In this document: positions 2,869 through 44,279 of the stretch, piece by piece
Numbering within the stretch: the stretch's first letter is position 1
Layout: every line of letters begins with the position of its first letter
DNA from: Fibrobacterota bacterium
GTDB lineage: Bacteria > Fibrobacterota > Chitinivibrionia > Chitinivibrionales > Chitinivibrionaceae
Assembly: GCA_051745755.1 (NCBI GenBank)
Contig: JBNJEI010000006.1
Location: forward strand, 1 to 64,000
DNA: 64,000 nt
Direction of reading: 5' to 3'
Translations under genes and position numbers: made by a program
The notes under the pieces: model-generated
The model's database searches: none
Seen by the model: only the letters and a program-made list of their open reading frames with translations
Told to the model about the DNA's origin: nothing

Positions 2869-5448
2869 ATGATTTTTTATCGCTATTTTCTGAAAACATT
2901 TCTCCGCCCCTTCCTCTATTCCTTTCTTGTGATAACCACCTTGTTTTTTATGCAGCTTGCTGCATCGATTCTTCCCCAGGTTATGTACCGCGGCGTGGCT
3001 CCTTTGGTTATTTGTGAGCTTATGCTTGTGCGCATGGCCGCGATTATTGTTCTGTCCATGCCTATGGCGTTTCTCGTCGCTATTCTTACTGTTTTTGGTC
3101 AGTTTTCGGCGCGCAATGAAATTGTAGCCCTGAAGGCTTCGGGAAAAAGTATTCTTGATTTTCTGCCGCCCTTTCTTTCCTTTGGGGCTTTAGTGGGGGT
3201 TCTGCTCTTTTTCTTTACGGACCAGATACTTCCCGAAGCAAATCATCATGCGGCAACTCTTTTCCGTGATATTATTCGCAAACGACCTGCGGCAATGATT
3301 GAAGAAGGGGTCCTTTTGGAAGATTTTCCCGGCTATGCGCTGCTGGTTGATTCTGTGGATCATTCCTCAGGTAAAATTAATGATATACGTATATTTGAAC
3401 GTGAGCAGGGGCAGATTAATTCATTGACCGTGGCCGACAGCGGAACAATTTTTCTGACGGAGGATGAGAAGTTTGTGGAACTGTCTCTTTTTTCCGGAAG
3501 TGTCTTCAGTAAGGGCCCTGACGGTAATTTTTATAATATGCGTTTTACCCGCCACCAGGTGTACATAGAGAACATCGAGAGTAATTTCAGCAGGTCCGCC
3601 GGTGGAAGCCGCGGGGGGCGGGAGAAAAGCACTGCTCAGCTTGTGGAGGGTGCCCGTGAAATGGAAGCGGATATCAGGGAATATACCGCAAGCCACAAAG
3701 AGGAGATTGACGGATATATTGAGTTTATTCAGTCGTATTATGATACTGCCCGCGCGTCTGATGACGCTGCATTTTCGTCTCTTCGGGGTTTTATCGACTC
3801 GTTGAAAAGCAGTGACAACCGTATTTATCCGCATCGTTCTCTGACTATGGAGCGAAGTGTTTCTGCTATGCGTGCAGGACGAATAGAGCGGCGGCAACGC
3901 GATAGTGACAGTTATATGGTGGAGTATCACAAAAAGTTTGCTCTCGGCGCAGCGGTGCTTGTTTTTGCTCTTTTAGGCCCTCCTCTGGGAATAATTACCA
4001 AAAGCGGGTCGGCTGTTATCGGCGCAGTTTACAGTTTTATTTTCTTCGTAATCTACTATGCGCTGCTTATTGCGGGAGAGTATTTCGGTGATGAAGGGAT
4101 CGTTTCTCCTGCGGTGGCGATGTGGTCCGGGAATATACTTATCACCTGTTTTTCTCTGTATCTGATCACTATACTCCTGCGGGGAAAAACTCTGTTTCTT
4201 CGGGGAATACTTCAAAACAAAATCCTTGTACCTCTCAGAAGAATCGCACAATTCCTTCTACGGGGAGAGCAACGGTTTGCTAAAAAGATAACTGAAAATA
4301 TACTGTATGCAGCAGGGTATTTATTCGCTTTTCCTTCCTGGGTTTTCAAGAAAATATTTAAAATTATTCCCGCCTATATTCTCGTTTTATTTATTACCAT
4401 GTTTGCCGTGATATTTTTGGGGCTGACGGGGCTTACTGTGGTTATTGACTATATTACGGATATGAATCGTCTGGAAGGGGCTTTATCTGGCGAGCTTGTA
4501 GAGTATTATCTTAACTTTCTTGCGGGATTTGTGGCCATACTATTTCCCATTACGGGACTTCTTGCCGCCATGATTACCATGGGGAGCCTTCAGGGGACAC
4601 GTGAGATTGATGCCATTCGTGCGGCGGGCAGGAGTATGGTCTCGGTGACCTTTCCCCTGGTGCTGTGTGGTGTGTTTTTGTCCCTCCTGTCATTTTTTAT
4701 TACGGATTTCGCCTTCCCCGAAAGGGACGCGGAGACCTCCCGGCTGCTCAGTGTATTCTCTGCCCGAAGACGAGGGGAGGAACTGCCTTCTCAGACACGG
4801 AAATACAACCATGATTTCTTCTTCTTCGACAGCCGTAACACCATGTATCATTTTCGCCATCTTCAGACGGTTCCGCCACGAGGGGATGATGTGACAATTT
4901 TTAATTTTTCCTCCGGCACGGCCCCTCAAAAAATTTCCTTTGTGGAAAAGGTTGAATATCTCACTGAAGAGTGGATGGCGTATAATGCCGATATATGGCA
5001 TATCAATCCCCAGGGGCATCTTGCGTATGAACAGAAGGATACGTCCACCCTGCGTCCTTTGGAAGAGGGACCGAAAAAAATGATTGAGACTGTGCATGGA
5101 AGCAGTAATGCCAGTATTGCTGAATTACAACGTGTTATAGAACAGTACGAGCAGCAGGGCAAAGATCCGGCAAAATATGAAGCCCGGCTTTACTTTCGTT
5201 TTTTTCTCCCCTGGATGAACCTTGTGGTTATATTTTTAGGTATTGCCGTTTCGGTAAAAACCGGCGGGGGAAACCGGGCGGTACATTTTGGAAAAGGGGT
5301 TGCTCTTACTCTTTTGTACTGGGTTTTGGTCCAGGTGCTGTTGATGATGGGAGAGAACGGTGTTATCCATCCCCTCATTGCAGCAGGCGGAGGTAATCTG
5401 TTTTTTCTGTTTCTCGGATTTTATATGTACTGGAGTGTTTCAAAGTGA
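2869..5448 (+). CDS. Fused LptF-LptG LPS-export ABC permease: two YjgP/YjgQ-family domains in one 859-aa polypeptide
   Basis: The N-terminal half has the LptF/G topology (TM1-3, a jellyroll region, then EYHKKFALGAAVLVFALLGPPLG... for TM4-6). The second half repeats this architecture (IIPAYILVLFITMFAVIFLGLTGL... through YEARLYFRFFLPWMNLVVIFLGIAV). Between TM3 and TM4 of domain 1 lies a charged, coiled-coil-like insert. Confidence 0.7.
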   Translation: MIFYRYFLKTFLRPFLYSFLVITTLFFMQLAASILPQVMYRGVAPLVICELMLVRMAAIIVLSMPMAFLVAILTVFGQFSARNEIVALKASGKSILDFLPPFLSFGALVGVLLFFFTDQILPEANHHAATLFRDIIRKRPAAMIEEGVLLEDFPGYALLVDSVDHSSGKINDIRIFEREQGQINSLTVADSGTIFLTEDEKFVELSLFSGSVFSKGPDGNFYNMRFTRHQVYIENIESNFSRSAGGSRGGREKSTAQLVEGAREMEADIREYTASHKEEIDGYIEFIQSYYDTARASDDAAFSSLRGFIDSLKSSDNRIYPHRSLTMERSVSAMRAGRIERRQRDSDSYMVEYHKKFALGAAVLVFALLGPPLGIITKSGSAVIGAVYSFIFFVIYYALLIAGEYFGDEGIVSPAVAMWSGNILITCFSLYLITILLRGKTLFLRGILQNKILVPLRRIAQFLLRGEQRFAKKITENILYAAGYLFAFPSWVFKKIFKIIPAYILVLFITMFAVIFLGLTGLTVVIDYITDMNRLEGALSGELVEYYLNFLAGFVAILFPITGLLAAMITMGSLQGTREIDAIRAAGRSMVSVTFPLVLCGVFLSLLSFFITDFAFPERDAETSRLLSVFSARRRGEELPSQTRKYNHDFFFFDSRNTMYHFRHLQTVPPRGDDVTIFNFSSGTAPQKISFVEKVEYLTEEWMAYNADIWHINPQGHLAYEQKDTSTLRPLEEGPKKMIETVHGSSNASIAELQRVIEQYEQQGKDPAKYEARLYFRFFLPWMNLVVIFLGIAVSVKTGGGNRAVHFGKGVALTLLYWVLVQVLLMMGENGVIHPLIAAGGGNLFFLFLGFYMYWSVSK

Positions 5449-20921: not shown

Positions 20922-20950
20922 TTGAATTTGCAATGTGCATGTTGTATATT
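20922..20950 (+). promoter_or_regulatory. Sigma-70-type promoter upstream of the sigma-factor gene
   Basis: TTGAAT at 20922-20927, a 17-nt spacer, then TATATT at 20945-20950. A 7-bp palindrome, CACATTG-n6-CAATGTG (20918-20937), overlaps the -35 element. Confidence 0.4.
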
Positions 20951-21078
20951 CCCACGCTCCTCTACCTTCTGCCTTAAAGCAGGGTGAGAAAATATATAAT
21001 CCACGGGTGAAACTTACGAAATGTACCGTGGCAGACGTAATATCAATTTTAAAACGAACACTAATAAAACGGATACAT

Positions 21079-21945
21079 ATGGCTAAAAGAAGTGACAAAA
21101 GTATGTTTTTTGTGGAAGAGGGAAGTCTGGGGTTATATCTTAAGGATATAGCCAAGCATGAGTCCTTAACCCAAAAAGAAGAGCAGGTCTGCGCCCGAAA
21201 GATCCGCAAGGGCGATAAAAAAGCGGTGGAAAAACTGGTTCGGGCGAATTTGCGGTTTGTTGTCAGTGTTGCACGAAATTATCAGAATCAGGGGATGCCC
21301 CTGGCTGATCTGATTAATGAGGGTAACCTCGGTCTGATTCGGGCTGCGTACCGCTTTGACGAAAAGAAGAACTTTAAATTTATTTCCTATGCTGTCTGGT
21401 GGATCCGTCAGGCGATTCTGCAGGGGCTTGCAGATCATTCCCGGATTGTTAAGGTGCCCCTGAATCGTGTTGCCACTATCCATAAGGTAGGTAAGGCCCG
21501 GGTGCGGCTGGAACAAAAATATCGGCGTCTGCCCAATGACAAGGAAATAGCCGACGAACTTGAGATCTCAGAGCGGGAAGTAACGTCCACCCTGAAGATC
21601 AGTAACCGCCATGCCTCACTGGATGCTCCCATCAAGGATGAAAACGGCGGCAGCCTCTTTGATATAATCGGCAGCGATGAAGGTGAGGATACGGATCAGC
21701 GGGCCATGGACACCTCCATAACCCGGGAAGTAAAAAAGGTTCTGGAGAGTCTTACCGAGCGTGAGCAGAATGTTGTCTGCATGTATTTCGGTATTAATGA
21801 AGACACAAACTATACCCTTGAGGAAATCGGTCAGCAGCTCCAAATAACCCGCGAGCGGGTCCGTCAGATTAAAGATGCGGCTCTTCGAAAACTGCGTCGT
21901 TCCGGTAAGGCACAGAAGTTAATTAAAAATGCACTTTTTTCGTAA
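21079..21945 (+). CDS. Sigma-70-family RNA polymerase sigma factor (RpoD/RpoS-like, 288 aa, no region 1.1)
   Basis: Region 2 reads LVRANLRFVVSVARNYQNQGMPLADLINEGNLGLIRAAYRFD...ISYAVWWIRQAI. Region 4.2 reads TLEEIGQQLQITRERVRQIKDAALRKLR. The start is MAKRSDK at 21079, and the track ORF extends upstream. Confidence 0.8.
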   Translation: MAKRSDKSMFFVEEGSLGLYLKDIAKHESLTQKEEQVCARKIRKGDKKAVEKLVRANLRFVVSVARNYQNQGMPLADLINEGNLGLIRAAYRFDEKKNFKFISYAVWWIRQAILQGLADHSRIVKVPLNRVATIHKVGKARVRLEQKYRRLPNDKEIADELEISEREVTSTLKISNRHASLDAPIKDENGGSLFDIIGSDEGEDTDQRAMDTSITREVKKVLESLTEREQNVVCMYFGINEDTNYTLEEIGQQLQITRERVRQIKDAALRKLRRSGKAQKLIKNALFS

Positions 21946-22017: not shown

Positions 22018-22605
22018 ATGCGAAATTTTATCTGCCTTCTGCTTTCTTTGTGGGCAATTGCGTGCAGCTCGTCTCCATCAGAAGAACACGACCGGGCTGA
22101 AATCACGGATTCTCTTTTTTTTGTGTATGATACAGAGGTGCCCGAGCTGTATGAATATTACTTCGATGATACGGTACTTGCCCTTTCGGAAGAAGATGCC
22201 TGGAATATGTACCGGAAACTTCGGGCTGAGGCTATTGCCGCAGAGGAATCCGGTGATGTGCCGGCCGCTCTTTTCAACCGGCTTCGGGCAGCGGAAGTAC
22301 AGGTGCATCTCCAGCGTCCCGGCATCGCTTCCTGGCAGTTTAATAATGCGGGGAATCTTATGATGACCCTTATCTCCAAAATCCAACAGTGTGATACTGC
22401 GTCCACGGACACCGCCGGTTCAACCCATCGGGATATTCAATCCATTGCCCGGTATATTGGTACAGAGACACACCATCTGTACCAGTGGGCTTTTCTGTTT
22501 TTTACGACTGCCTACGATTTTAATGCTGATAATCCCGACGCGCAGCGGGAGCGTATTATCAAAGGCAATATTGCCCATGTGAAACAACAATTGCAAACCC
22601 CGTGA
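22018..22605 (+). CDS. Hypothetical lipoprotein
   Basis: It starts MRNFICLLLSLWAIACSSS, with a lipobox, and has no recognised domain. Confidence 0.45.
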   Translation: MRNFICLLLSLWAIACSSSPSEEHDRAEITDSLFFVYDTEVPELYEYYFDDTVLALSEEDAWNMYRKLRAEAIAAEESGDVPAALFNRLRAAEVQVHLQRPGIASWQFNNAGNLMMTLISKIQQCDTASTDTAGSTHRDIQSIARYIGTETHHLYQWAFLFFTTAYDFNADNPDAQRERIIKGNIAHVKQQLQTP

Positions 22606-23214: not shown

Positions 23215-24003
23215 GTGGATATTATCGCCTCCACACGGGTGTTTCTCATTGATCTTGATGGAACACTCTACCTTTCCGGTGCTCTGTTGCCCGGAGCACG
23301 TGAATTTATGGATCGTGTACAGGAATCAGGCCGGCGTTTTTTCTATCTTACGAACAATTCATCCCAATCAAAAAAAGAGTATGAAGTAAAACTGAAGAAT
23401 TTCGGACTACCGGTGTATGAGGACTCCGTTATAACCTCCGGGATGTCGGCAGGACGCTATCTGGAAAGGCATTTTCCCGGAAAAAGGATCTATGTTTCGG
23501 GAACCGCTGCCCTGGTTGATGAGCTTTCTGCCTACAATATACAGGTATGTACCCAATGTTCTCACGATGCAGATGCGGTGCTTCTTGGCTTTGACAGAGA
23601 ACTAACCTACGATAAGCTCACCCATGTGTGTGATCTTGTCGCCCGGAATCGCCCGTTTTTTGCGACAAACGAGGATCTTGTCTGCCCCCTGGAGAACAAT
23701 AGATTTATTCCCGACTGCGGTTCCATGGTACAGCTTATTACCGCTGCAACGCAAGTGTATCCCGTTTTTCTTGGAAAACCCCGTACGGCAATTCTTGATG
23801 TGGTTTTTTCTGCCGTATCCTGCAAAAGTACTGAAATAACACTTATCGGTGATCGTTTATACACTGACATTGCCCTGGCTGAGAATGGAGGGCTCCGCTC
23901 AATACTGGTACTTACCGGAGAGACATCCCGTTACACGGGCAATGAAACACATGTTCCGCATTCCGTTGTTTCAGATTTGCGCAGTATCACTCCCTTTCTA
24001 TAA
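23215..24003 (+). CDS. HAD-IIA family hydrolase (NagD-like sugar-phosphate phosphatase)
   Basis: The N-terminus LIDLDGTLY is HAD motif I. YLTNNSS, GDRLYTD and a distal D are also present. Confidence 0.7.
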   Translation: MDIIASTRVFLIDLDGTLYLSGALLPGAREFMDRVQESGRRFFYLTNNSSQSKKEYEVKLKNFGLPVYEDSVITSGMSAGRYLERHFPGKRIYVSGTAALVDELSAYNIQVCTQCSHDADAVLLGFDRELTYDKLTHVCDLVARNRPFFATNEDLVCPLENNRFIPDCGSMVQLITAATQVYPVFLGKPRTAILDVVFSAVSCKSTEITLIGDRLYTDIALAENGGLRSILVLTGETSRYTGNETHVPHSVVSDLRSITPFL

Positions 24004-24100
24004 TTTCTTTTGCGATTAAATTCAGATAGGTCTTTACAGACTATCAGTGCACAGTGTATTTCTTCTAGAGACCGTACATATACTCATAAAGGAGTTTTCT

Positions 24101-24448
24101 ATGGCACATGAAGGATTTCATGAAGAGAATCTTCCCGAAGAGGTTCGGGATTATCATCGGATGATTCAAAGTGTAATTGAGGAATTGGAGGCTGTGGATT
24201 GGTATAATCAGCGCGCTGCGGCAACCTCAGATGCACAGGTTAAGGCCATTGTGGAGCATAACCGCGATGAAGAAATTGAACATGCCTGCATGGGTCTTGA
24301 ATGGCTGCGTCGGGCGGCCCCTGCCTGGGATGAGAATCTCAGAACCTTTCTCTTTACCGCAGGGGATATTACCGCCGTAGAGGAAGGCTCAGAAAATGAA
24401 GAAGATGTTTCAACACAGGACCAGTCCCTTGGAATAAAGGGGCAGTAA
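24101..24448 (+). CDS. Encapsulated ferritin-like protein (EncFtn-type cargo) with a C-terminal encapsulin targeting-peptide-like tail
   Basis: 115 aa. The RBS AAGGAG sits 8 nt upstream. The protein carries a ferritin-like Glu/His diiron set (EELEAVDWY, DEEIEH, EWL). It has an acidic flexible linker and a C-terminal ...QSLGIKGQ tail resembling family-1 encapsulin targeting peptides. Confidence 0.65.
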   Translation: MAHEGFHEENLPEEVRDYHRMIQSVIEELEAVDWYNQRAAATSDAQVKAIVEHNRDEEIEHACMGLEWLRRAAPAWDENLRTFLFTAGDITAVEEGSENEEDVSTQDQSLGIKGQ

Positions 24449-24461
24449 CAGGAGGTTTTTT

Positions 24462-25256
24462 ATGTCACAGCTAAACAGAAATCTGGCACCATTTAATGAA
24501 AATATCTGGAATATTATTGATGATGAGATTCGGACTCGTCTGACAAATCGCTTAAAACTTCGCAGGATACTCGATTTTAAAGGGCCCTATGGATTTGATT
24601 ATTCCGCGGTCAATACGGGGAAGCATGTTCTCCTTGAGGGAAACACATCTGATGTTACCTATTCTCTCAGAAAAGTTCTGCCCCTTGTTGAGATAGAGAC
24701 TTCCTTCACCGTGGACCGAAAGGAAGTATCCGCCCTGGAACGGGGGGCTGTTGACCTGGAATCAGAATCGCTTCCTGAGGCAGTGGAGCGCTTTGCAGCA
24801 GCAGAGAATTCGGCAATATTACACGGCATACAGGGTGCGGACTTTCAGGGTCTTATGGATTCATCTGAAAATGATGTGATCAGTGTGGATAAGGATGATC
24901 TGGTTGTGTCCAGCGCTATGGCTGTCCGTGCCCTCAATGATCAGGATGTGGAAGGACCGTATGCTCTTTTTGTGGGGCCGGATCTCTACTCATACATCTA
25001 TACTGCTGACGACAAGGGGTACCCCATAAAAAAACGTCTGGAGGAAATACTTAACGGCCCGGTTCAGGTGCTTTCCGACCTGGCAGATGAAGGCTTTTTG
25101 TCAAGCAGTCGGGGAGGGGATTTTGAATTTATCTCCGGTGAGGATGTTTCCGTGGGATACAGCCATACCGACGCTGATAAGATTCACCTCTTTATCCGCG
25201 AGAGTTTTACCGTGAGGGTTCATTCTCCTGAAGCGGTTATTGCCCTGAAGGCGTAA
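24462..25256 (+). CDS. Family-1 encapsulin nanocompartment shell protein (HK97-fold, linocin-M18-like)
   Basis: 264 aa. It begins MSQLNRNLAPFNENIWNIIDDEIRTRLTNRLKLRRILDFKGPYGFDYSAV.... The sequence pattern and length are those of family-1 shells, and it lies immediately downstream of the cargo gene. Confidence 0.8.
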   Translation: MSQLNRNLAPFNENIWNIIDDEIRTRLTNRLKLRRILDFKGPYGFDYSAVNTGKHVLLEGNTSDVTYSLRKVLPLVEIETSFTVDRKEVSALERGAVDLESESLPEAVERFAAAENSAILHGIQGADFQGLMDSSENDVISVDKDDLVVSSAMAVRALNDQDVEGPYALFVGPDLYSYIYTADDKGYPIKKRLEEILNGPVQVLSDLADEGFLSSSRGGDFEFISGEDVSVGYSHTDADKIHLFIRESFTVRVHSPEAVIALKA

Positions 25257-25273
25257 TGTCTTTTAGCATGACA

Positions 25274-25296
25274 GAAAGACCCCGCTGGGGTCTTTC
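25274..25296. terminator. GC-rich hairpin shared by the convergent encapsulin (+) and rnfB (-) 3' ends
   Basis: The stem is GAAAGACCCC-GCT-GGGGTCTTTC, a 10-bp stem. The plus-strand downstream sequence is U-rich (CTGTTATGTGTTT). Confidence 0.5.
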
Positions 25297-25299
25297 CTG

Positions 25300-39364: not shown

Positions 39365-41365
39365 TTACCTCTTTTGTGGTATAATTGTATTGATTTTTCC
39401 AGTAAGAATTTTCTGTGTTGCCGGTTTTTTCAGAAAATCCGTATGGTTTTGCTGAAGCAGTTTTTCCATGATTTCTGAATCATAGAAACCGGTGTGCAGG
39501 AGTATGGGGATGTTTGATTGAATTTCACGCAGTTTATAAAAGCATTCATCACCATTCATACCGGGCATAATCATATCAAGAATCACCAGATCGATTTCTG
39601 CGACCTGTTTCTGAAATATCTCAATGGCTGTTTTCCCTGTTTCCGCAGTGAGAATATGATGACCGGATTTTTTAAGCATGTGCGAGAGGGCAAGACGGAT
39701 GGTACTCTCGTCGTCCACGACAAGAATTGTTCTGCCTGAAGTGTGGTCCGGGGAGTGAACAGCTGTATGATCCGGTTGTTTTTGCTTATGTTTATCCGGT
39801 GATACCAGAGGGAGATAGATATGAAATACCGTACCGCGTCCGGGCAGTGATTTTACATTTACGGCTCCCCGGTGAATCTGGATAATACCATACACCCGGG
39901 CAAGCCCAAGACCTGAGCCTCCGGCATTTCGCCGGGTGCTGTAAAAGGGTTCAAAAATCCGTTTCTGGATCTCCGGTTTCATACCCTTTCCCGTATCACG
40001 GATACTGATTTCAATATAGCGGCCCGGCACAACCCGGTAGCCTGTAACGTCAGAGAAATTTTCATCCAGTTCGATATTCCGTGTGGATATATATATCTGT
40101 CCATTTCCCTCAATGGCGGATCTGGCATTTATAAGAATATTCGAAAAGAGATTGTGCAGATCTGTTGTGTTTCCCCGAATCAGGGAGGATTCGGCTTCGG
40201 GAAGAAACCGTGTAGCCGGGGCAGTTGTTGCGCTCAGTCTGTTAAAATCAAGGGTCTGCTCAAGCACAGAGTGAATATCGACTTCCTCCATTTCGACATT
40301 TTTGTTTTTTGAGATGTCAAGGAGCTGATTCGTCATTTCTATTGATTTTGAGACTCCCTGTTCTATGATGTGTATGATATCAACGAATTCATGATTTGTG
40401 TCAGCATCTTCAAGCAGCTCCAATGCAGAGCGGACACTGCACAGGGTGTTATTAAAATCATGCGCTATGCCCCCGGCCATTCGACTCAGGGAATCCATTT
40501 TTTTCTGCTGTTCCTCAATTTGTTCTCTTGATATGTCAGTGGCAATAACATAGGCCATGTGTGAGTCTATGGGTATCAGGCTTACCCGGTAATGGTGCGG
40601 CAGATATCCCTGTACGCTGATATTGCGAAATTCACGGGTCTGTTCTGTGGTTAAAAGGTGGGTACGCATTTCCTCGGGAGCGGAGAAAATATCGAAGACA
40701 GAGGCCTTGTTTTCACCGCTGTGGGGAGCAATTTTTTCCCACTCGGGATTGCAGGCGTGAATAATTCCCGTACTGCGTTCAACCACCCCGATTGCATCGG
40801 TTGACTCCTCAAAGAGGAGGGATACTTTTTTTTCCGCTGTTATCCGTGCCGTAATATCTATGAGCAGGGAGAGGATTTCCGTATCTGAATTTTTTATACT
40901 CTTCATCAGGATATGCGGTTCGTTTTCTGTATTGAGCTGAACCTCGCATTCCCGGGGTATGTCACTGTGTAAGGTTGCCCGTATGTGGTGGTAGAGAATG
41001 TCACGGCTGCGGGGATGTAAAAATGCTGTGAGCTTTCCTCCTTCCAGTGCTGTTGCCGAAGTTGCCATAAGGCTGGCAGCCTCTGTGTTTGTTTTGAGTA
41101 TTTCGTAGCTGCTGGAGAGGGTGATATACGGTGCGGGGGCGTTCTGATAGAGATTGATATATCTTCTGTTTGCCCGTTCAAGATCCTTGTAGGTATTTTG
41201 CAGTTCTTCGTTTTGGGTTTCAAGCTCTATTTGATGAATACGTAATTCTTCAGAAACTGTATCGAGATCATTATACGCCTGTGAAGGAATTGTTTCGCTG
41301 TTTTTCTGTAAAATCCTCAGTGCTTTTTCCCGAAGTTTGTCTGTTTTCTTACCCATTCTGTCCAC
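39365..41365 (-). CDS. Cytoplasmic hybrid sensor histidine kinase (coiled coil, PAS, HisKA, HATPase, REC)
   Basis: N-terminal heptads HQIELETQNEELQNTYKDLE. The H-box is MAGGIAHDFNN. G1/G2 boxes are DTGKGM and GGSGLGLA. The C-terminal receiver is ILVVDDE...ILDMIMPGMNG. There is no TM helix. Confidence 0.8.
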   Translation of the reverse strand: MDRMGKKTDKLREKALRILQKNSETIPSQAYNDLDTVSEELRIHQIELETQNEELQNTYKDLERANRRYINLYQNAPAPYITLSSSYEILKTNTEAASLMATSATALEGGKLTAFLHPRSRDILYHHIRATLHSDIPRECEVQLNTENEPHILMKSIKNSDTEILSLLIDITARITAEKKVSLLFEESTDAIGVVERSTGIIHACNPEWEKIAPHSGENKASVFDIFSAPEEMRTHLLTTEQTREFRNISVQGYLPHHYRVSLIPIDSHMAYVIATDISREQIEEQQKKMDSLSRMAGGIAHDFNNTLCSVRSALELLEDADTNHEFVDIIHIIEQGVSKSIEMTNQLLDISKNKNVEMEEVDIHSVLEQTLDFNRLSATTAPATRFLPEAESSLIRGNTTDLHNLFSNILINARSAIEGNGQIYISTRNIELDENFSDVTGYRVVPGRYIEISIRDTGKGMKPEIQKRIFEPFYSTRRNAGGSGLGLARVYGIIQIHRGAVNVKSLPGRGTVFHIYLPLVSPDKHKQKQPDHTAVHSPDHTSGRTILVVDDESTIRLALSHMLKKSGHHILTAETGKTAIEIFQKQVAEIDLVILDMIMPGMNGDECFYKLREIQSNIPILLHTGFYDSEIMEKLLQQNHTDFLKKPATQKILTGKINTIIPQKR

Positions 41366-44279
41366 CTTTACCGGAGTGCTTCATCACAACTCCAACTACT
41401 TTCACAGGTTTTCCGTCTACACCGGTTTCAATTACTCTGCCCCGGTCTGTATACGTGTCGTATGCCCCGTCTTTTCGGCGAATTCGATAGGTGGTTTCGT
41501 ATTGCGGCTGTTTTCCCGAAAGATGATCCTTCATGGCCTTCATGGTTTTTTCATAGTCCTCCGGATGAATACGTTCCACCCAGCCCTGGTATCCCTCTCC
41601 GATTTCATCAGGTTCATAGCCCAGCATTACAGATTTTGCCGGACTTGCGGTGACGACGTTGTGGGTAATATCCCATTCCCACCACGCCATATTCCCCATT
41701 TCCAGGGCATGCTCCAGCTGGGAGATGAGAATATCCCGTTTCATTTTTCGACCGTATTCCTCAGTGGTATCAATAAAGGAAACAATAAGGCCGTTTACTG
41801 CGTCCATGGAATCCCGATAGGGCAGTATTTTTATGCTGTACCACCGGTCTTTAAAAAGATTAATCTGTTTCTGTTTTGACTCAAGGCTATCGGCGACGTC
41901 CTGAATATCCTGTGTAAAGCCGGGATAGATGGAGTCTGTTGCCAGATCTTCAAGGGGGCGGCCGATATCGTTTTTCTGAATGGGGGTGATTGATTCCACT
42001 ATTTCTGTGTATTTCCGGATATTAAGGTCATTATCCAGAAAAAGGCAGCCGATCTGAGTATTTCGCAGCAGATTATTCATATCGCTGTTGAGGTCTGATA
42101 ATTCCTGAATCTTTTCCTGGTGCTCTGTGTTTACCGTATAGAGCTCTTCATTGACCGATTCCAGTTCTTCATTGGTGCTCTGCAGCTCTTCATTGGATGC
42201 GATCAGTTCTTCATTGGAGGTCTGCAGTTCCTCGTTAGAGCTTTCCAGTTCTTCTATCGTAGCCTGCAGACTTTCGCTTTTGTGGTGCAGCTCCTGTTCC
42301 AGGTGTGTGATACGGTCCCGGTAATCCTGCAGAACGGAATGGGTATTCTCATCATTTTTACTGTCGGTTGCTGTGTGCTGTTTCTTTCGGTATTCTCTGA
42401 AACTGATGCTGTAGTATTCATGTCCCGACTGACTGCTGATGTGTTTTTTTACAATAAGAGAGACAGATTCGGAGGAAGAGAGTGCGACATTTGAGTATTG
42501 TTGCTGCCGGGTATCGCTGTCCGCTTTTTTTAAAAGACTTGTTACGGCAATTGAAAGGGTGTCATTCTGAATCATCTGGCCGATATTCAGGTTCATTTCG
42601 CCACGGGGTATTCGGAGAAATCGGGAGCAGTCTGTCACGGTATAGAGGAGATTGTGTTTTTTGTCAACAATAATTGTGGGAGGCAGCAGGGGGCCGAGAA
42701 GCTCATGGAAAGTGTCACTGCCAATAGAGAAATCATCCGGCTGTCGTCGCCTGGGTACATTGAAATTCTCTGGAAGGGAGGCCGTCCTGAGAGTACCCTT
42801 ACGTGAGATAAGGGGCATGGTCATGGATTCGGCGAGTTTGCTGCTCCTATTGTATTTGTAGATTTTCCATTTGGTATCCACGGTCTTAAAGCCGTCCACG
42901 AGGGTGCCCACGGCTTCGCTGTTTCCCAGAAAAAGATACCCCTCAGGCTTCAGGCAGAAATAGAGGAGATTGAGCACTTTCTTCTGGGTTTCCCGCTTCA
43001 GATATATCATCATATTGCGGCATGTGACCAGATCTATCCGTGAGAAAGGAGGATCTTTGAGGATATTGTGCTTTGCAAAGACCACCATATTGCGAATGCT
43101 TTTATGGATCCGGAATCCCGCTTCTGTCTGAATAAAATATTTTGCGATAATCTCAGGGTTTACATCGGAAATAATATTCTCCGGATATACCCCGGTACCG
43201 GCAAAGGCTATGGATTCTTCATCTATGTCTGTAGCAAAAATTTTGACATTTTTGTAGATATCATTTTTCTCCATATATTCCTTAATGAGAATTGCCAGAG
43301 AATAGGGTTCTTCTCCCGTAGAGCAGCTGATTGACCAGATGCGTATGGCTTCATCTTTTCTTCCGGAGGTAAATAATGCGGGGATTACCCGTTCCTGCAA
43401 AACATCAAAGGCTTCGGGATCACGAAAGAACCGGGTTACCCCAATAAGGAATTCCTTATACAGGGTATGTATTTCATGTGTATTTTTTTCCAGAAATTCT
43501 ATATAGTCTTTCAGGGATGTGAGCTGATTTATGGCAACGCGTTTTTCCAGCTGACGGAGTATTGTACTTTCTTTGTACAGGGAGAAATCAATACTGTGAT
43601 GCTCCCGCAGCAGATGAAATATGCGTGAAAGATAATCCTCTCCGTTAGTAATACCGGACTCAAGAAAGCTTTCTTTTTTTACAAAGGGGTGATGAGAGTA
43701 TTTTTTTAATTCCCCTGCCATTTGCTGCGGTGTAAGAATATAATCAACATTTCCCGTGGCAATGAGGCTTTCGGGCATACCGTCAAATTTTGCCGACTGA
43801 TTATCCTGGCACATAATCATGCCGCCGAATTCCTTGATGGTCCGACAGCCGAGGGTACCGTCGCTTCCCGTCCCGGAGAGTATCATGGCTACGGCGGATG
43901 TGCCCGCATCCCGCGCAAGGGAGCGAAGGAAGATATCTATGGGAAGATTAAGCTTCTTATCTTTTGCGATAGGGTTCAGTATAAAGGTGTTATGGAAAAT
44001 TTCAAGGTTTTTCCCCGGAGGAATAAGGTAGACCCTGCGGGGTACTATCTGCATTTTATTTTCGGCATAGGTTATGGGAATGCTGGTATAGCGCCTGAGC
44101 AGTTCATCCATAAGGCTTTTAAAATCAGGAGACAGATGTTGTACGATGATGTATGCTGCAGTAAGGTTCGGGTCAAGATTCTCAAAAAAAGCCTGCAGTG
44201 ATTCCAGTCCGCCTGCTGATGCGCCGATTCCCACACGAAGAAATTCGTTCCGGGAGGATTTGTTTTTATTGCCTGCCAT
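41349..44279 (-). CDS. CheB methylesterase - CheR methyltransferase fusion with an NEEL-heptad coiled coil and a C-terminal PAS domain
   Basis: The N-terminal CheB_methylest region is [13 protein letters not shown]...SGTGSDG. The CheR SAM-MTase region is ...[18 protein letters not shown].... The linker is (S/T)NEEL x6, followed by a PAS domain (WWEWDITHN...). The gene overlaps the downstream kinase by 17 nt. Confidence 0.8.
42143..42268 (-). repeat. In-frame 21-nt tandem repeat (x6) encoding xxSNEEL heptads of the CheBR linker
   Basis: On the plus strand GTTCTTCATTGG recurs at 42164, 42185 and 42206. Variants occur at 42143, 42227 and 42248. Confidence 0.7.

Follow-up and report, generated by a model that had tools for sequence, protein, structure and literature searches.

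The DNA analysed here is a stretch of 64,000 nucleotides (hereafter the window), positions 1 to 64,000 of contig JBNJEI010000006.1 from assembly GCA_051745755.1 of a Fibrobacterota bacterium. It carries two adjacent genes, one for an encapsulated ferritin-like protein (EncFtn) and one for an encapsulin shell, that most probably (at roughly 0.92) constitute an operon of two genes closely coupled in translation, whose product is a nanocompartment of the classical (family 1) encapsulin type with EncFtn as the cargo. The genes stand in the canonical order, cargo then shell, with a spacing of only 13 nt. The analysis establishes the family membership of the two proteins, the conserved catalytic residues, the fold, the gene order, purifying selection, and the absence of the cassette at the syntenic site in relatives.

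The 115-residue product of the first gene is identified as an EncFtn by family models and by solved structures. It matches Pfam PF22277 (EncFtn-like) at E = 1e-38 with 131.4 bits (cutoff 27), and NCBIfam TIGR04535 (encapsulin-associated ferritin-like protein) with 141.7 bits (cutoff 125). Five solved EncFtns, including chains of Rhodospirillum rubrum, Haliangium ochraceum, and Nitrosomonas europaea, are matched at 1e-25 to 1e-29; the values are 1.4e-28 for the R. rubrum protein (PDB 5da5) and 2.7e-29 for PDB 33bf. The scores against the models of the Myxococcus xanthus-type cargos EncB and EncC stay below their cutoffs (68.9 bits against 90 for NF058679, EncB_fam; 23.1 bits against 210 for NF058678), and the protein is thus a relative of the EncB/EncC subfamily that stands outside its membership.

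The catalytic residues are conserved as well. The alignment with R. rubrum EncFtn (residues 9-98) is ungapped with an offset of 4, and all residues of the ferroxidase centre and of the metal gateway are identical: E27, E28, E30, W34, Y35, H53, E57, E58, E60, and H61 correspond to E31, E32, E34, W38, Y39, H57, E61, E62, E64, and H65 of the R. rubrum protein. Across 121 sequences, made up of the query and its 120 best homologues, each of the ten is invariant or almost invariant. In R. rubrum numbering, the EncFtn ligands are E32, E62, and H65, for which mutational evidence exists, accompanied by Tyr39, an ExxE entry motif, and an HxxxEExEH motif (PMC11202242). The entry motif is represented here by E27/E30 and the longer motif by H53-NRD-E57-E58-I-E60-H61. 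Thus, the original prediction, a model's reading of this DNA made from the sequence alone, was right to call the protein an EncFtn-like ferritin and to place Glu/His diiron ligands in EELEAV (residues 27-32) and DEEIEH (residues 56-61).

An AlphaFold2 model of the cargo, predicted as a monomer only from 19 sequences, contains helices at residues 13-41, 45-72, and 74-86, i.e., two long antiparallel helices and a short C-terminal helix that together make up half of a four-helix bundle. The pLDDT (predicted local distance difference test score) falls below 50 over residues 96-115. The best Foldseek matches of the model are 5da5, 3k6c, and 5n5f, with the R. rubrum and H. ochraceum EncFtns among them, at target-normalised template-modelling (TM) scores of 0.73-0.83.

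The 264-residue product of the second gene is a family 1 encapsulin shell protein with the HK97 fold, which the original prediction had also recognised as such. It matches Pfam PF04454 (Linocin_M18) over the whole profile (positions 1-253 of 253; 1.1e-64, 218.6 bits, cutoff 24.3) and the NCBIfam equivalog NF041155 (family 1 encapsulin nanocompartment shell protein) with 232 bits (cutoff 100). Matches to 23 solved family 1 shells range from 1e-37 to 1e-54; they include 7odw of H. ochraceum (9.5e-54), 3dkt of Thermotoga maritima (1e-46), and R. rubrum-type, mycobacterial, and other family 1 shells. An exhaustive HMMER search of 1.84 billion representative sequences, with E <= 1e-3 as the threshold, returned 1,122 relatives, the top one being 41% identical. 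The family is thus large, and the shell diverges moderately within it. When a genome collection was scanned with the shell protein, no close relative came up.

The AlphaFold2 model of the shell protein (59 sequences) has a mean pLDDT of 95.2 and a predicted TM score of 0.90, with both its N-terminal helix and its P-domain at a pLDDT of at least 90. The A-domain, P-domain, and E-loop of the HK97 fold are all present in it, and no additional domain is fused to its N-terminus. The top 27 PDB matches in Foldseek are all family 1 encapsulins of triangulation number T=1 (TM 0.85-0.95, root-mean-square deviation 1.7-3.3 Å over about 265 columns), and homology to HK97-fold encapsulins, the absence of which the original prediction had named as a ground for its refutation, is therefore clear. 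T=3 and T=4 shells appear lower in the list (TM 0.74-0.81, about 20% identity). The length of 264 residues lies within that of T=1 shell proteins (258-280 residues) and outside that of EncA-type proteins (281-301 residues). From this length and from the uniformly T=1 top structural matches, the best inference is a T=1 shell of 60 subunits. At its five-fold pore the H. ochraceum shell has Tyr188 and Lys192 (PMC8791618), which correspond to Tyr187 and Lys191 here.

The cargo would be connected to the shell by its C-terminal tail. The shell-bound peptide of H. ochraceum is GSLGIGSLR with the core motif GxLGIxxL (PMC8791618), and in the native T. maritima peptide, NTGGDLGIRK, binding is by way of the two hydrophobic LGI residues together with a lysine at the C-terminus (PMC7925596). 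A more general consensus for targeting peptides is L-x-[VI]-x-x-[LI], with L-x-[IL]-x as the minimum (PMC11202242). When the cargo tail, ...QSLGIKGQ, is aligned to the known peptides, the SLGI core and the Lys that follows it are evident, which bears out the suggestion that it resembles a targeting peptide. LGIK fits the minimum consensus; the six-residue consensus is not satisfied, the last Leu or Ile being replaced by Gln. L110 does not vary among relatives, and at least 90% conservation is seen at S109 and G111. The third hydrophobic residue is likewise missing from 43 of 115 peptide-bearing sequences (the query and close homologues), some of which end in LGIK, LGIR, or LGIG. Since no other open reading frame (ORF) of the window has a C-terminus resembling a targeting peptide, EncFtn is the sole cargo candidate visible there.

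Ahead of the peptide lies an acidic linker, TAVEEGSENEEDVSTQDQ (residues 91-108), which had been described as unusually long. This description did not survive comparison with 114 close homologues that bear a targeting peptide, drawn from 120 homologues. Measured from residue 86, the tail has 29 residues against a median of 36 (range 22-45), and 95% of the homologues have a longer one; its eight acidic residues equal the homologue median, with an acidic fraction of 0.35 (median, 0.31). The linker is therefore of usual length for its clade or shorter, and ordinary in acidity. Tails of the closest relatives are exemplified by TAIEDDEEEDSEDLSTSSDNSLGINNLR. In published systems the disordered EncFtn tail spans 10-40 residues (PMC11202242) and the linker 10-20 residues (PMC7925596).

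Both genes are maintained by selection. A metagenome contig (L002; JGI 3300060338), referred to below as the sister contig, bears the same locus, and its two proteins are 97-98% identical to those of the window. Between the two strains EncFtn differs by 20 synonymous and 3 non-synonymous changes, with a ratio of non-synonymous to synonymous divergence (dN/dS) of 0.03; the shell gene differs by 37 and 8, respectively, with a dN/dS of 0.06. Such ratios indicate strong purifying selection on both genes. The SLGIKGQ tail is identical in the two strains although synonymous divergence (dS) is about 0.3. The dS of the cassette (0.23-0.35) is similar to that of the flanking genes for the HAD hydrolase, the CDP-alcohol phosphatidyltransferase, and RnfB (0.26-0.30), and the cassette had its place before the two strains diverged.

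Several known systems resemble the locus to different degrees. The closest solved shell is that of H. ochraceum (7odw/7oe2; 37% identity, TM 0.93, 266 residues against 264 here), whose EncFtn (5n5f) matches the cargo at 1e-25. The two systems have in common a cargo-then-shell operon, an SLGI core, and the conserved pore Tyr and Lys. They differ in that the H. ochraceum peptide contains a third hydrophobic anchor, its EncFtn is longer (131 residues) with a longer tail, its pore has Asp186 where Lys185 is found here, and its host is an aerobic myxobacterium whereas the host here is presumed to be an anaerobe. The shell of T. maritima (maritimacin; 3dkt/7kq5), which houses the ferritin-like protein Flp, is 35% identical with a TM of 0.90. 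Its host is an anaerobe, and its peptide, ...DLGIRK, follows the same pattern of LGI plus a basic residue as SLGIK (PMC7925596). In the T. maritima shell, a Trp of the LDLWELD segment, a flavin-binding residue, aligns with Lys87 of the shell here, and the two pore loops differ in sequence. R. rubrum EncFtn (Rru_A0973) has the same HxxxEExEH motif, whereas it is longer (140 residues against 115), with a C-terminal tail of considerably greater length. M. xanthus EncA with EncB and EncC likewise combines an HK97-fold shell with ferritin-like cargos that have C-terminal targeting peptides; it is, however, distant. EncA (4pt2, 7s20, 7s5c, 7s8t) has 287 residues, forms T=3 shells, and takes up several cargos; the shell match is 1.8e-06 (about 21% identity, TM 0.75-0.79), and EncB and EncC are matched at 1e-3 to 1e-4.

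The host and its relatives show where the cassette sits and suggest how it came there. RnfC of the window is 67-68% identical to that of Chitinivibrio alkaliphilus, the closest cultured relative, and of a Fibrobacterota metagenome-assembled genome (MAG), and the next matches, at most 56% identical, are mostly from Chitinispirillia and Fibrobacter; the window is thus from a Chitinivibrio-like member of Fibrobacterota. The genes upstream on the plus strand encode a sigma-70 factor, a 195-residue protein without a family match, a CDP-alcohol phosphatidyltransferase, and a HAD-IIA hydrolase. Downstream, rnfB-A-E-G-D-C lies on the minus strand. The membrane-lipid genes upstream and the convergent rnf operon had been correctly named in the original prediction. 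C. alkaliphilus is collinear over ComEC, STAS, DJ-1, rnfCDGEAB, convergent HAD, CDP-alcohol phosphatidyltransferase, an unknown gene, sigma-70, a further gene, ArgJ, and SecD. Its gap between rnfB and the HAD gene is merely 221 bp of terminator-like sequence (L003, 15266-15486), where the window holds the cassette (24004-25299). No remnants of the cassette were found in this C. alkaliphilus locus, for which tblastn with both proteins gave a best E-value of 0.23. As C. alkaliphilus is collinear without the cassette, the lipid-gene and Rnf neighbourhood is incidental. Two further relatives have no cassette after rnfB, and their downstream genes differ. The rnfB of a more distant relative, whose RnfC is 56% identical, converges with a gene for a 147-residue rubrerythrin (L005, 15503-15946), i.e., a different di-iron oxidative-stress protein occupies the analogous slot.

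The nearest loci for cargo and shell together are those of Orenia marismortui (GCA_000379025.1; 72% and 47% identity, respectively) and of two MAGs labelled "Thermotogaceae" (L006 and L007; 73/46% and 72/45%), followed by a Bacillota MAG (69/43%) and Halanaerobacter jeridensis (66/42%). The Orenia and "Thermotogaceae" loci have the gene order, acidic linker, and SLGI motif found here; they belong to other phyla, have different neighbours, carry linkers longer by 2-3 residues, and end in ...SLGINNLR with a third anchor. The best 80 EncFtn loci, taken from at least 592 GTDB species genomes, include none from Fibrobacterota. That the nearest cargo-shell pairs occur in Halanaerobiales and "Thermotogaceae" MAGs suggests lateral acquisition, and horizontal transfer is described as frequent for family 1 operons in PMC8346489. 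On these comparisons the simplest reading is that both genes came together by lateral transfer into the convergent intergenic gap, and the cassette is an indel specific to this lineage that probably reflects gain rather than loss in relatives. Base composition is uninformative on a foreign origin: the GC fraction runs without a step from the flanks (0.42-0.52) into the cassette (0.43-0.50). In O. marismortui the cassette is flanked by genes for a desulfoferrodoxin (superoxide reductase-type) and an IS110-family transposase (L001, 4668-5015 and 7502-8785), flanks from which a role in oxidative stress and a mobile cassette may be surmised.

A separate history of the two genes was considered as well. 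A word-indexed search had returned eight shell relatives of at most 40% identity against cargo relatives of 72-75%, which raised the possibility of a shell swap. This was rejected: the Orenia shell is 47% identical in direct comparison, the same loci rank at the top for both genes, and the HMMER search finds the relatives in large number. The first search returned few shells because its word index was limited. Across EncFtn loci the shell gene lies immediately downstream on the same strand in 49 of 82. In the other 33 (within L024-L085), tblastn with the window shell (E <= 1e-5) found no shell in the flanks examined, and many EncFtn matches in these loci stop at about residue 91-99. The shell-less loci may represent the tail-less 's-FLP' class or may be paired with divergent shells.

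How the shell assembles and with which T number, how it is loaded, whether the cargo is active as a ferroxidase, and what the compartment does in the cell we only infer, and by homology to the systems of R. rubrum, H. ochraceum, and T. maritima the following mechanism is proposed. The 264-residue protein would self-assemble into a 60-subunit T=1 icosahedral shell of roughly 24 nm. The 115-residue protein would form D5 decamers, with di-iron ferroxidase centres made of E28, E58, and H61 (plus Y35) at the dimer interfaces. During assembly, the disordered acidic tail would dock SLGIK in a hydrophobic pocket on the inner face of the shell, and a few decamers would be packaged. About four are expected to fit a T=1 shell; four per shell are reported for H. 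ochraceum (PMC8791618) and up to five for T. maritima (PMC8346489). Fe2+ would pass the dynamic five-fold pores, be oxidised at the EncFtn centres, and be laid down as a ferric mineral, and because EncFtn cannot store iron alone, this Fe3+ mineral would be held inside the shell. The compartment would thereby store iron and rid an anaerobic, Chitinivibrio-like member of Fibrobacterota of oxidants and Fenton-active Fe2+. In a presumed strict anaerobe the emphasis may be as much on the removal of Fenton iron and oxidants during O2 exposure as on storage, the two roles being compatible. The cassette is an independent unit in the convergent HAD-rnfB gap, with no demonstrable functional tie to its neighbours.

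Several points weigh against this account. The host, by its relatedness to the anaerobe C. alkaliphilus, is probably a strict anaerobe, and this bears on the oxidant that the ferroxidase would use in vivo. A consensus scan of the 97-nt gap upstream of EncFtn (24004-24100) found no promoter on the plus strand. Asp186 of the H. ochraceum pore aligns with Lys185, preceded by Asp183 and Asp184, and from the alignment the pore electrostatics may differ from those of H. ochraceum. QSLGIKGQ lacks both the leading Gly and the third hydrophobic residue, the final Leu, of GxLGIxxL (PMC8791618). The shortened peptide raises the alternative that shell and EncFtn are both made but SLGIKGQ loads poorly, EncFtn then acting mainly as a free ferroxidase and the shell remaining largely empty or taking up another cargo whose gene lies elsewhere in the genome. 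The tail is indeed the shortest variant among the nearest relatives, which have SLGIKGLKK or SLGIKGKKK. Nonetheless, an LGI-plus-basic core governs binding in T. maritima (PMC7925596), the two-anchor form is common among homologues, the tail has not changed in the sister strain, and the window offers no other ORF with such a C-terminus; poor loading is accordingly considered improbable.

Still less probable is a coupling of the cassette to its neighbours, by co-transcription with the lipid and HAD genes or by supply of iron to the Fe-S-rich Rnf complex, as part of a larger membrane or energy module. The lipid genes lie on the same strand with no terminator-like hairpin in the 97-nt gap, rnfB and rnfC encode many 4Fe-4S domains, and the sister contig has the same arrangement. 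However, C. alkaliphilus keeps the sigma-70, unknown, CDP-alcohol phosphatidyltransferase, and HAD genes convergent with rnfBAEGDC and has no cassette, rnf is on the opposite strand, and the genes that surround related cassettes in Orenia and elsewhere are unrelated to those here. The least credible proposal, to which hardly any weight can be given, is that ORF 24462-25256 encodes the HK97-type capsid of a remnant prophage or a 'linocin-like bacteriocin'. The historical Pfam name, 'Linocin_M18', and a weak match to the major head protein family phrog_10 (E = 0.0015, 18.6 bits) point in that direction, but such a match is what distant HK97-fold kinship would lead one to expect (PMC8346489), the equivalog score to NF041155 is high, and a gene for a cargo with a targeting peptide lies directly upstream. 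The window contains housekeeping genes only, with no terminase, portal, protease, or tail genes, and tblastn of the shell against 50,697 phage genomes gave no match; a prophage capsid origin is excluded. The operon for a classical encapsulin with an EncFtn cargo thus remains the preferred reading.

As such, the locus is an ordinary example of a compartment that is well known in bacteria for iron storage and stress. Thousands of members of this class have been catalogued and several structures solved, so that one further family 1 encapsulin of the EncFtn type has its value mainly in annotation. According to PMC8346489, operons of the FLP/EncFtn type rank second in size among the cargo classes of classical encapsulins and occur in 23 bacterial phyla, and the supplement already catalogues the FLP-type systems of Orenia (O. 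metallireducens) and Halanaerobium. Neither 'Fibrobacter' nor 'Chitinivibrio' appears in the available part of that supplementary catalogue, and a search of full-text literature found no paper that links encapsulins with Chitinivibrio; the only one naming both encapsulin and Fibrobacter treats, in general terms, how viruses originated and evolved. The system is thus possibly extended to another phylum through these Chitinivibrio-like Fibrobacterota, and the contrast with C. alkaliphilus at a collinear locus illustrates two genes moving as one unit. A bolder interpretation, to which we lean slightly less than to its opposite, is that this is the first recorded Fibrobacterota encapsulin, acquired as a unit from Halanaerobiales- or Thermotogae-like halophilic anaerobes and equipped with a minimal two-anchor SLGIK and an unusually short linker. 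If true, it would be a natural example of how little peptide suffices to load a cargo and of the spread of encapsulins in hypersaline anaerobic communities. The short SLGIKGQ tail, as a natural minimal targeting peptide, is also of possible interest for the engineering of cargo loading.

The features of the locus are collected in Table 1. Both ORFs have the coordinates and lengths first assigned to them, and an AGGAG(G) ribosome-binding site precedes each. The placement of the EncFtn ATG agrees with homologues that start M-x-x-EG[FY]HE. The position 25296 with which the original prediction closed the cassette is the end of the hairpin, which is kept, with altered sequence, in the sister contig. 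No inverted repeats were found in 23990-24110. Between window and sister contig the upstream gap (24004-24100) is 92% identical (89 of 97 positions) despite a dS of about 0.3 at synonymous sites of the flanking genes, which suggests constraint by a promoter or operator.

Table 1. Features of the encapsulin cassette, in window coordinates.
Feature	Position	Strand	Remarks
EncFtn ribosome-binding site, AGGAG	24090-24094	+	6 nt 5' of ATG; seen directly in the sequence
EncFtn (encapsulated ferritin-like protein) gene	24101-24448	+	ATG 24101, stop 24446-24448; 115 residues
Codons of ferroxidase-centre and metal-gateway residues	24179-24283	+	E27, E28, E30, W34, Y35, H53, E57, E58, E60, H61; by alignment to R. 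rubrum EncFtn
Acidic, predicted-disordered linker TAVEEGSENEEDVSTQDQ	24371-24424	+	Residues 91-108; pLDDT below 50 at residues 96-107
C-terminal targeting peptide SLGIKGQ	24425-24445	+	Residues 109-115; LGI core, then Lys
Shell-gene ribosome-binding site, AGGAGG	24450-24455	+	Within the 13-nt gap between EncFtn and shell genes, 6 nt 5' of ATG
Family 1 encapsulin shell gene	24462-25256	+	ATG 24462, stop 25254-25256; 264 residues
Terminator-like hairpin	25274-25296	+	Perfect 10-bp stem, 3-nt loop; between convergent shell and rnfB genes

Other genes of the window gave some minor observations. The sigma-70 ORF upstream of the cassette (20935-21945, plus strand) has 336 residues when read from its GTG, against 248-288 residues in its counterparts, and its true start is probably an internal ATG (MAKRSDKS...). 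The 195-residue protein that follows (22018-22605, plus strand) matches nothing in Pfam, NCBIfam, or PHROG and has an N-terminus, MRNFICLLLSLWAIACSS, that resembles a lipoprotein signal; a gene of similar size without a Pfam match occupies the same position between sigma-70 and the CDP-alcohol phosphatidyltransferase in C. alkaliphilus (184 residues) and in the sister contig (160 residues). Farther upstream, an 859-residue ORF (2869-5448, plus strand) has two LptF/LptG permease matches (PF03739, 1.4e-125) and, from these domain matches, seems to represent a lipopolysaccharide export permease in which LptF and LptG are fused. On the minus strand, a 976-residue protein with CheB methylesterase, CheR methyltransferase, and two PAS domains (41349-44279) adjoins a hybrid histidine kinase/response regulator (39365-41365).

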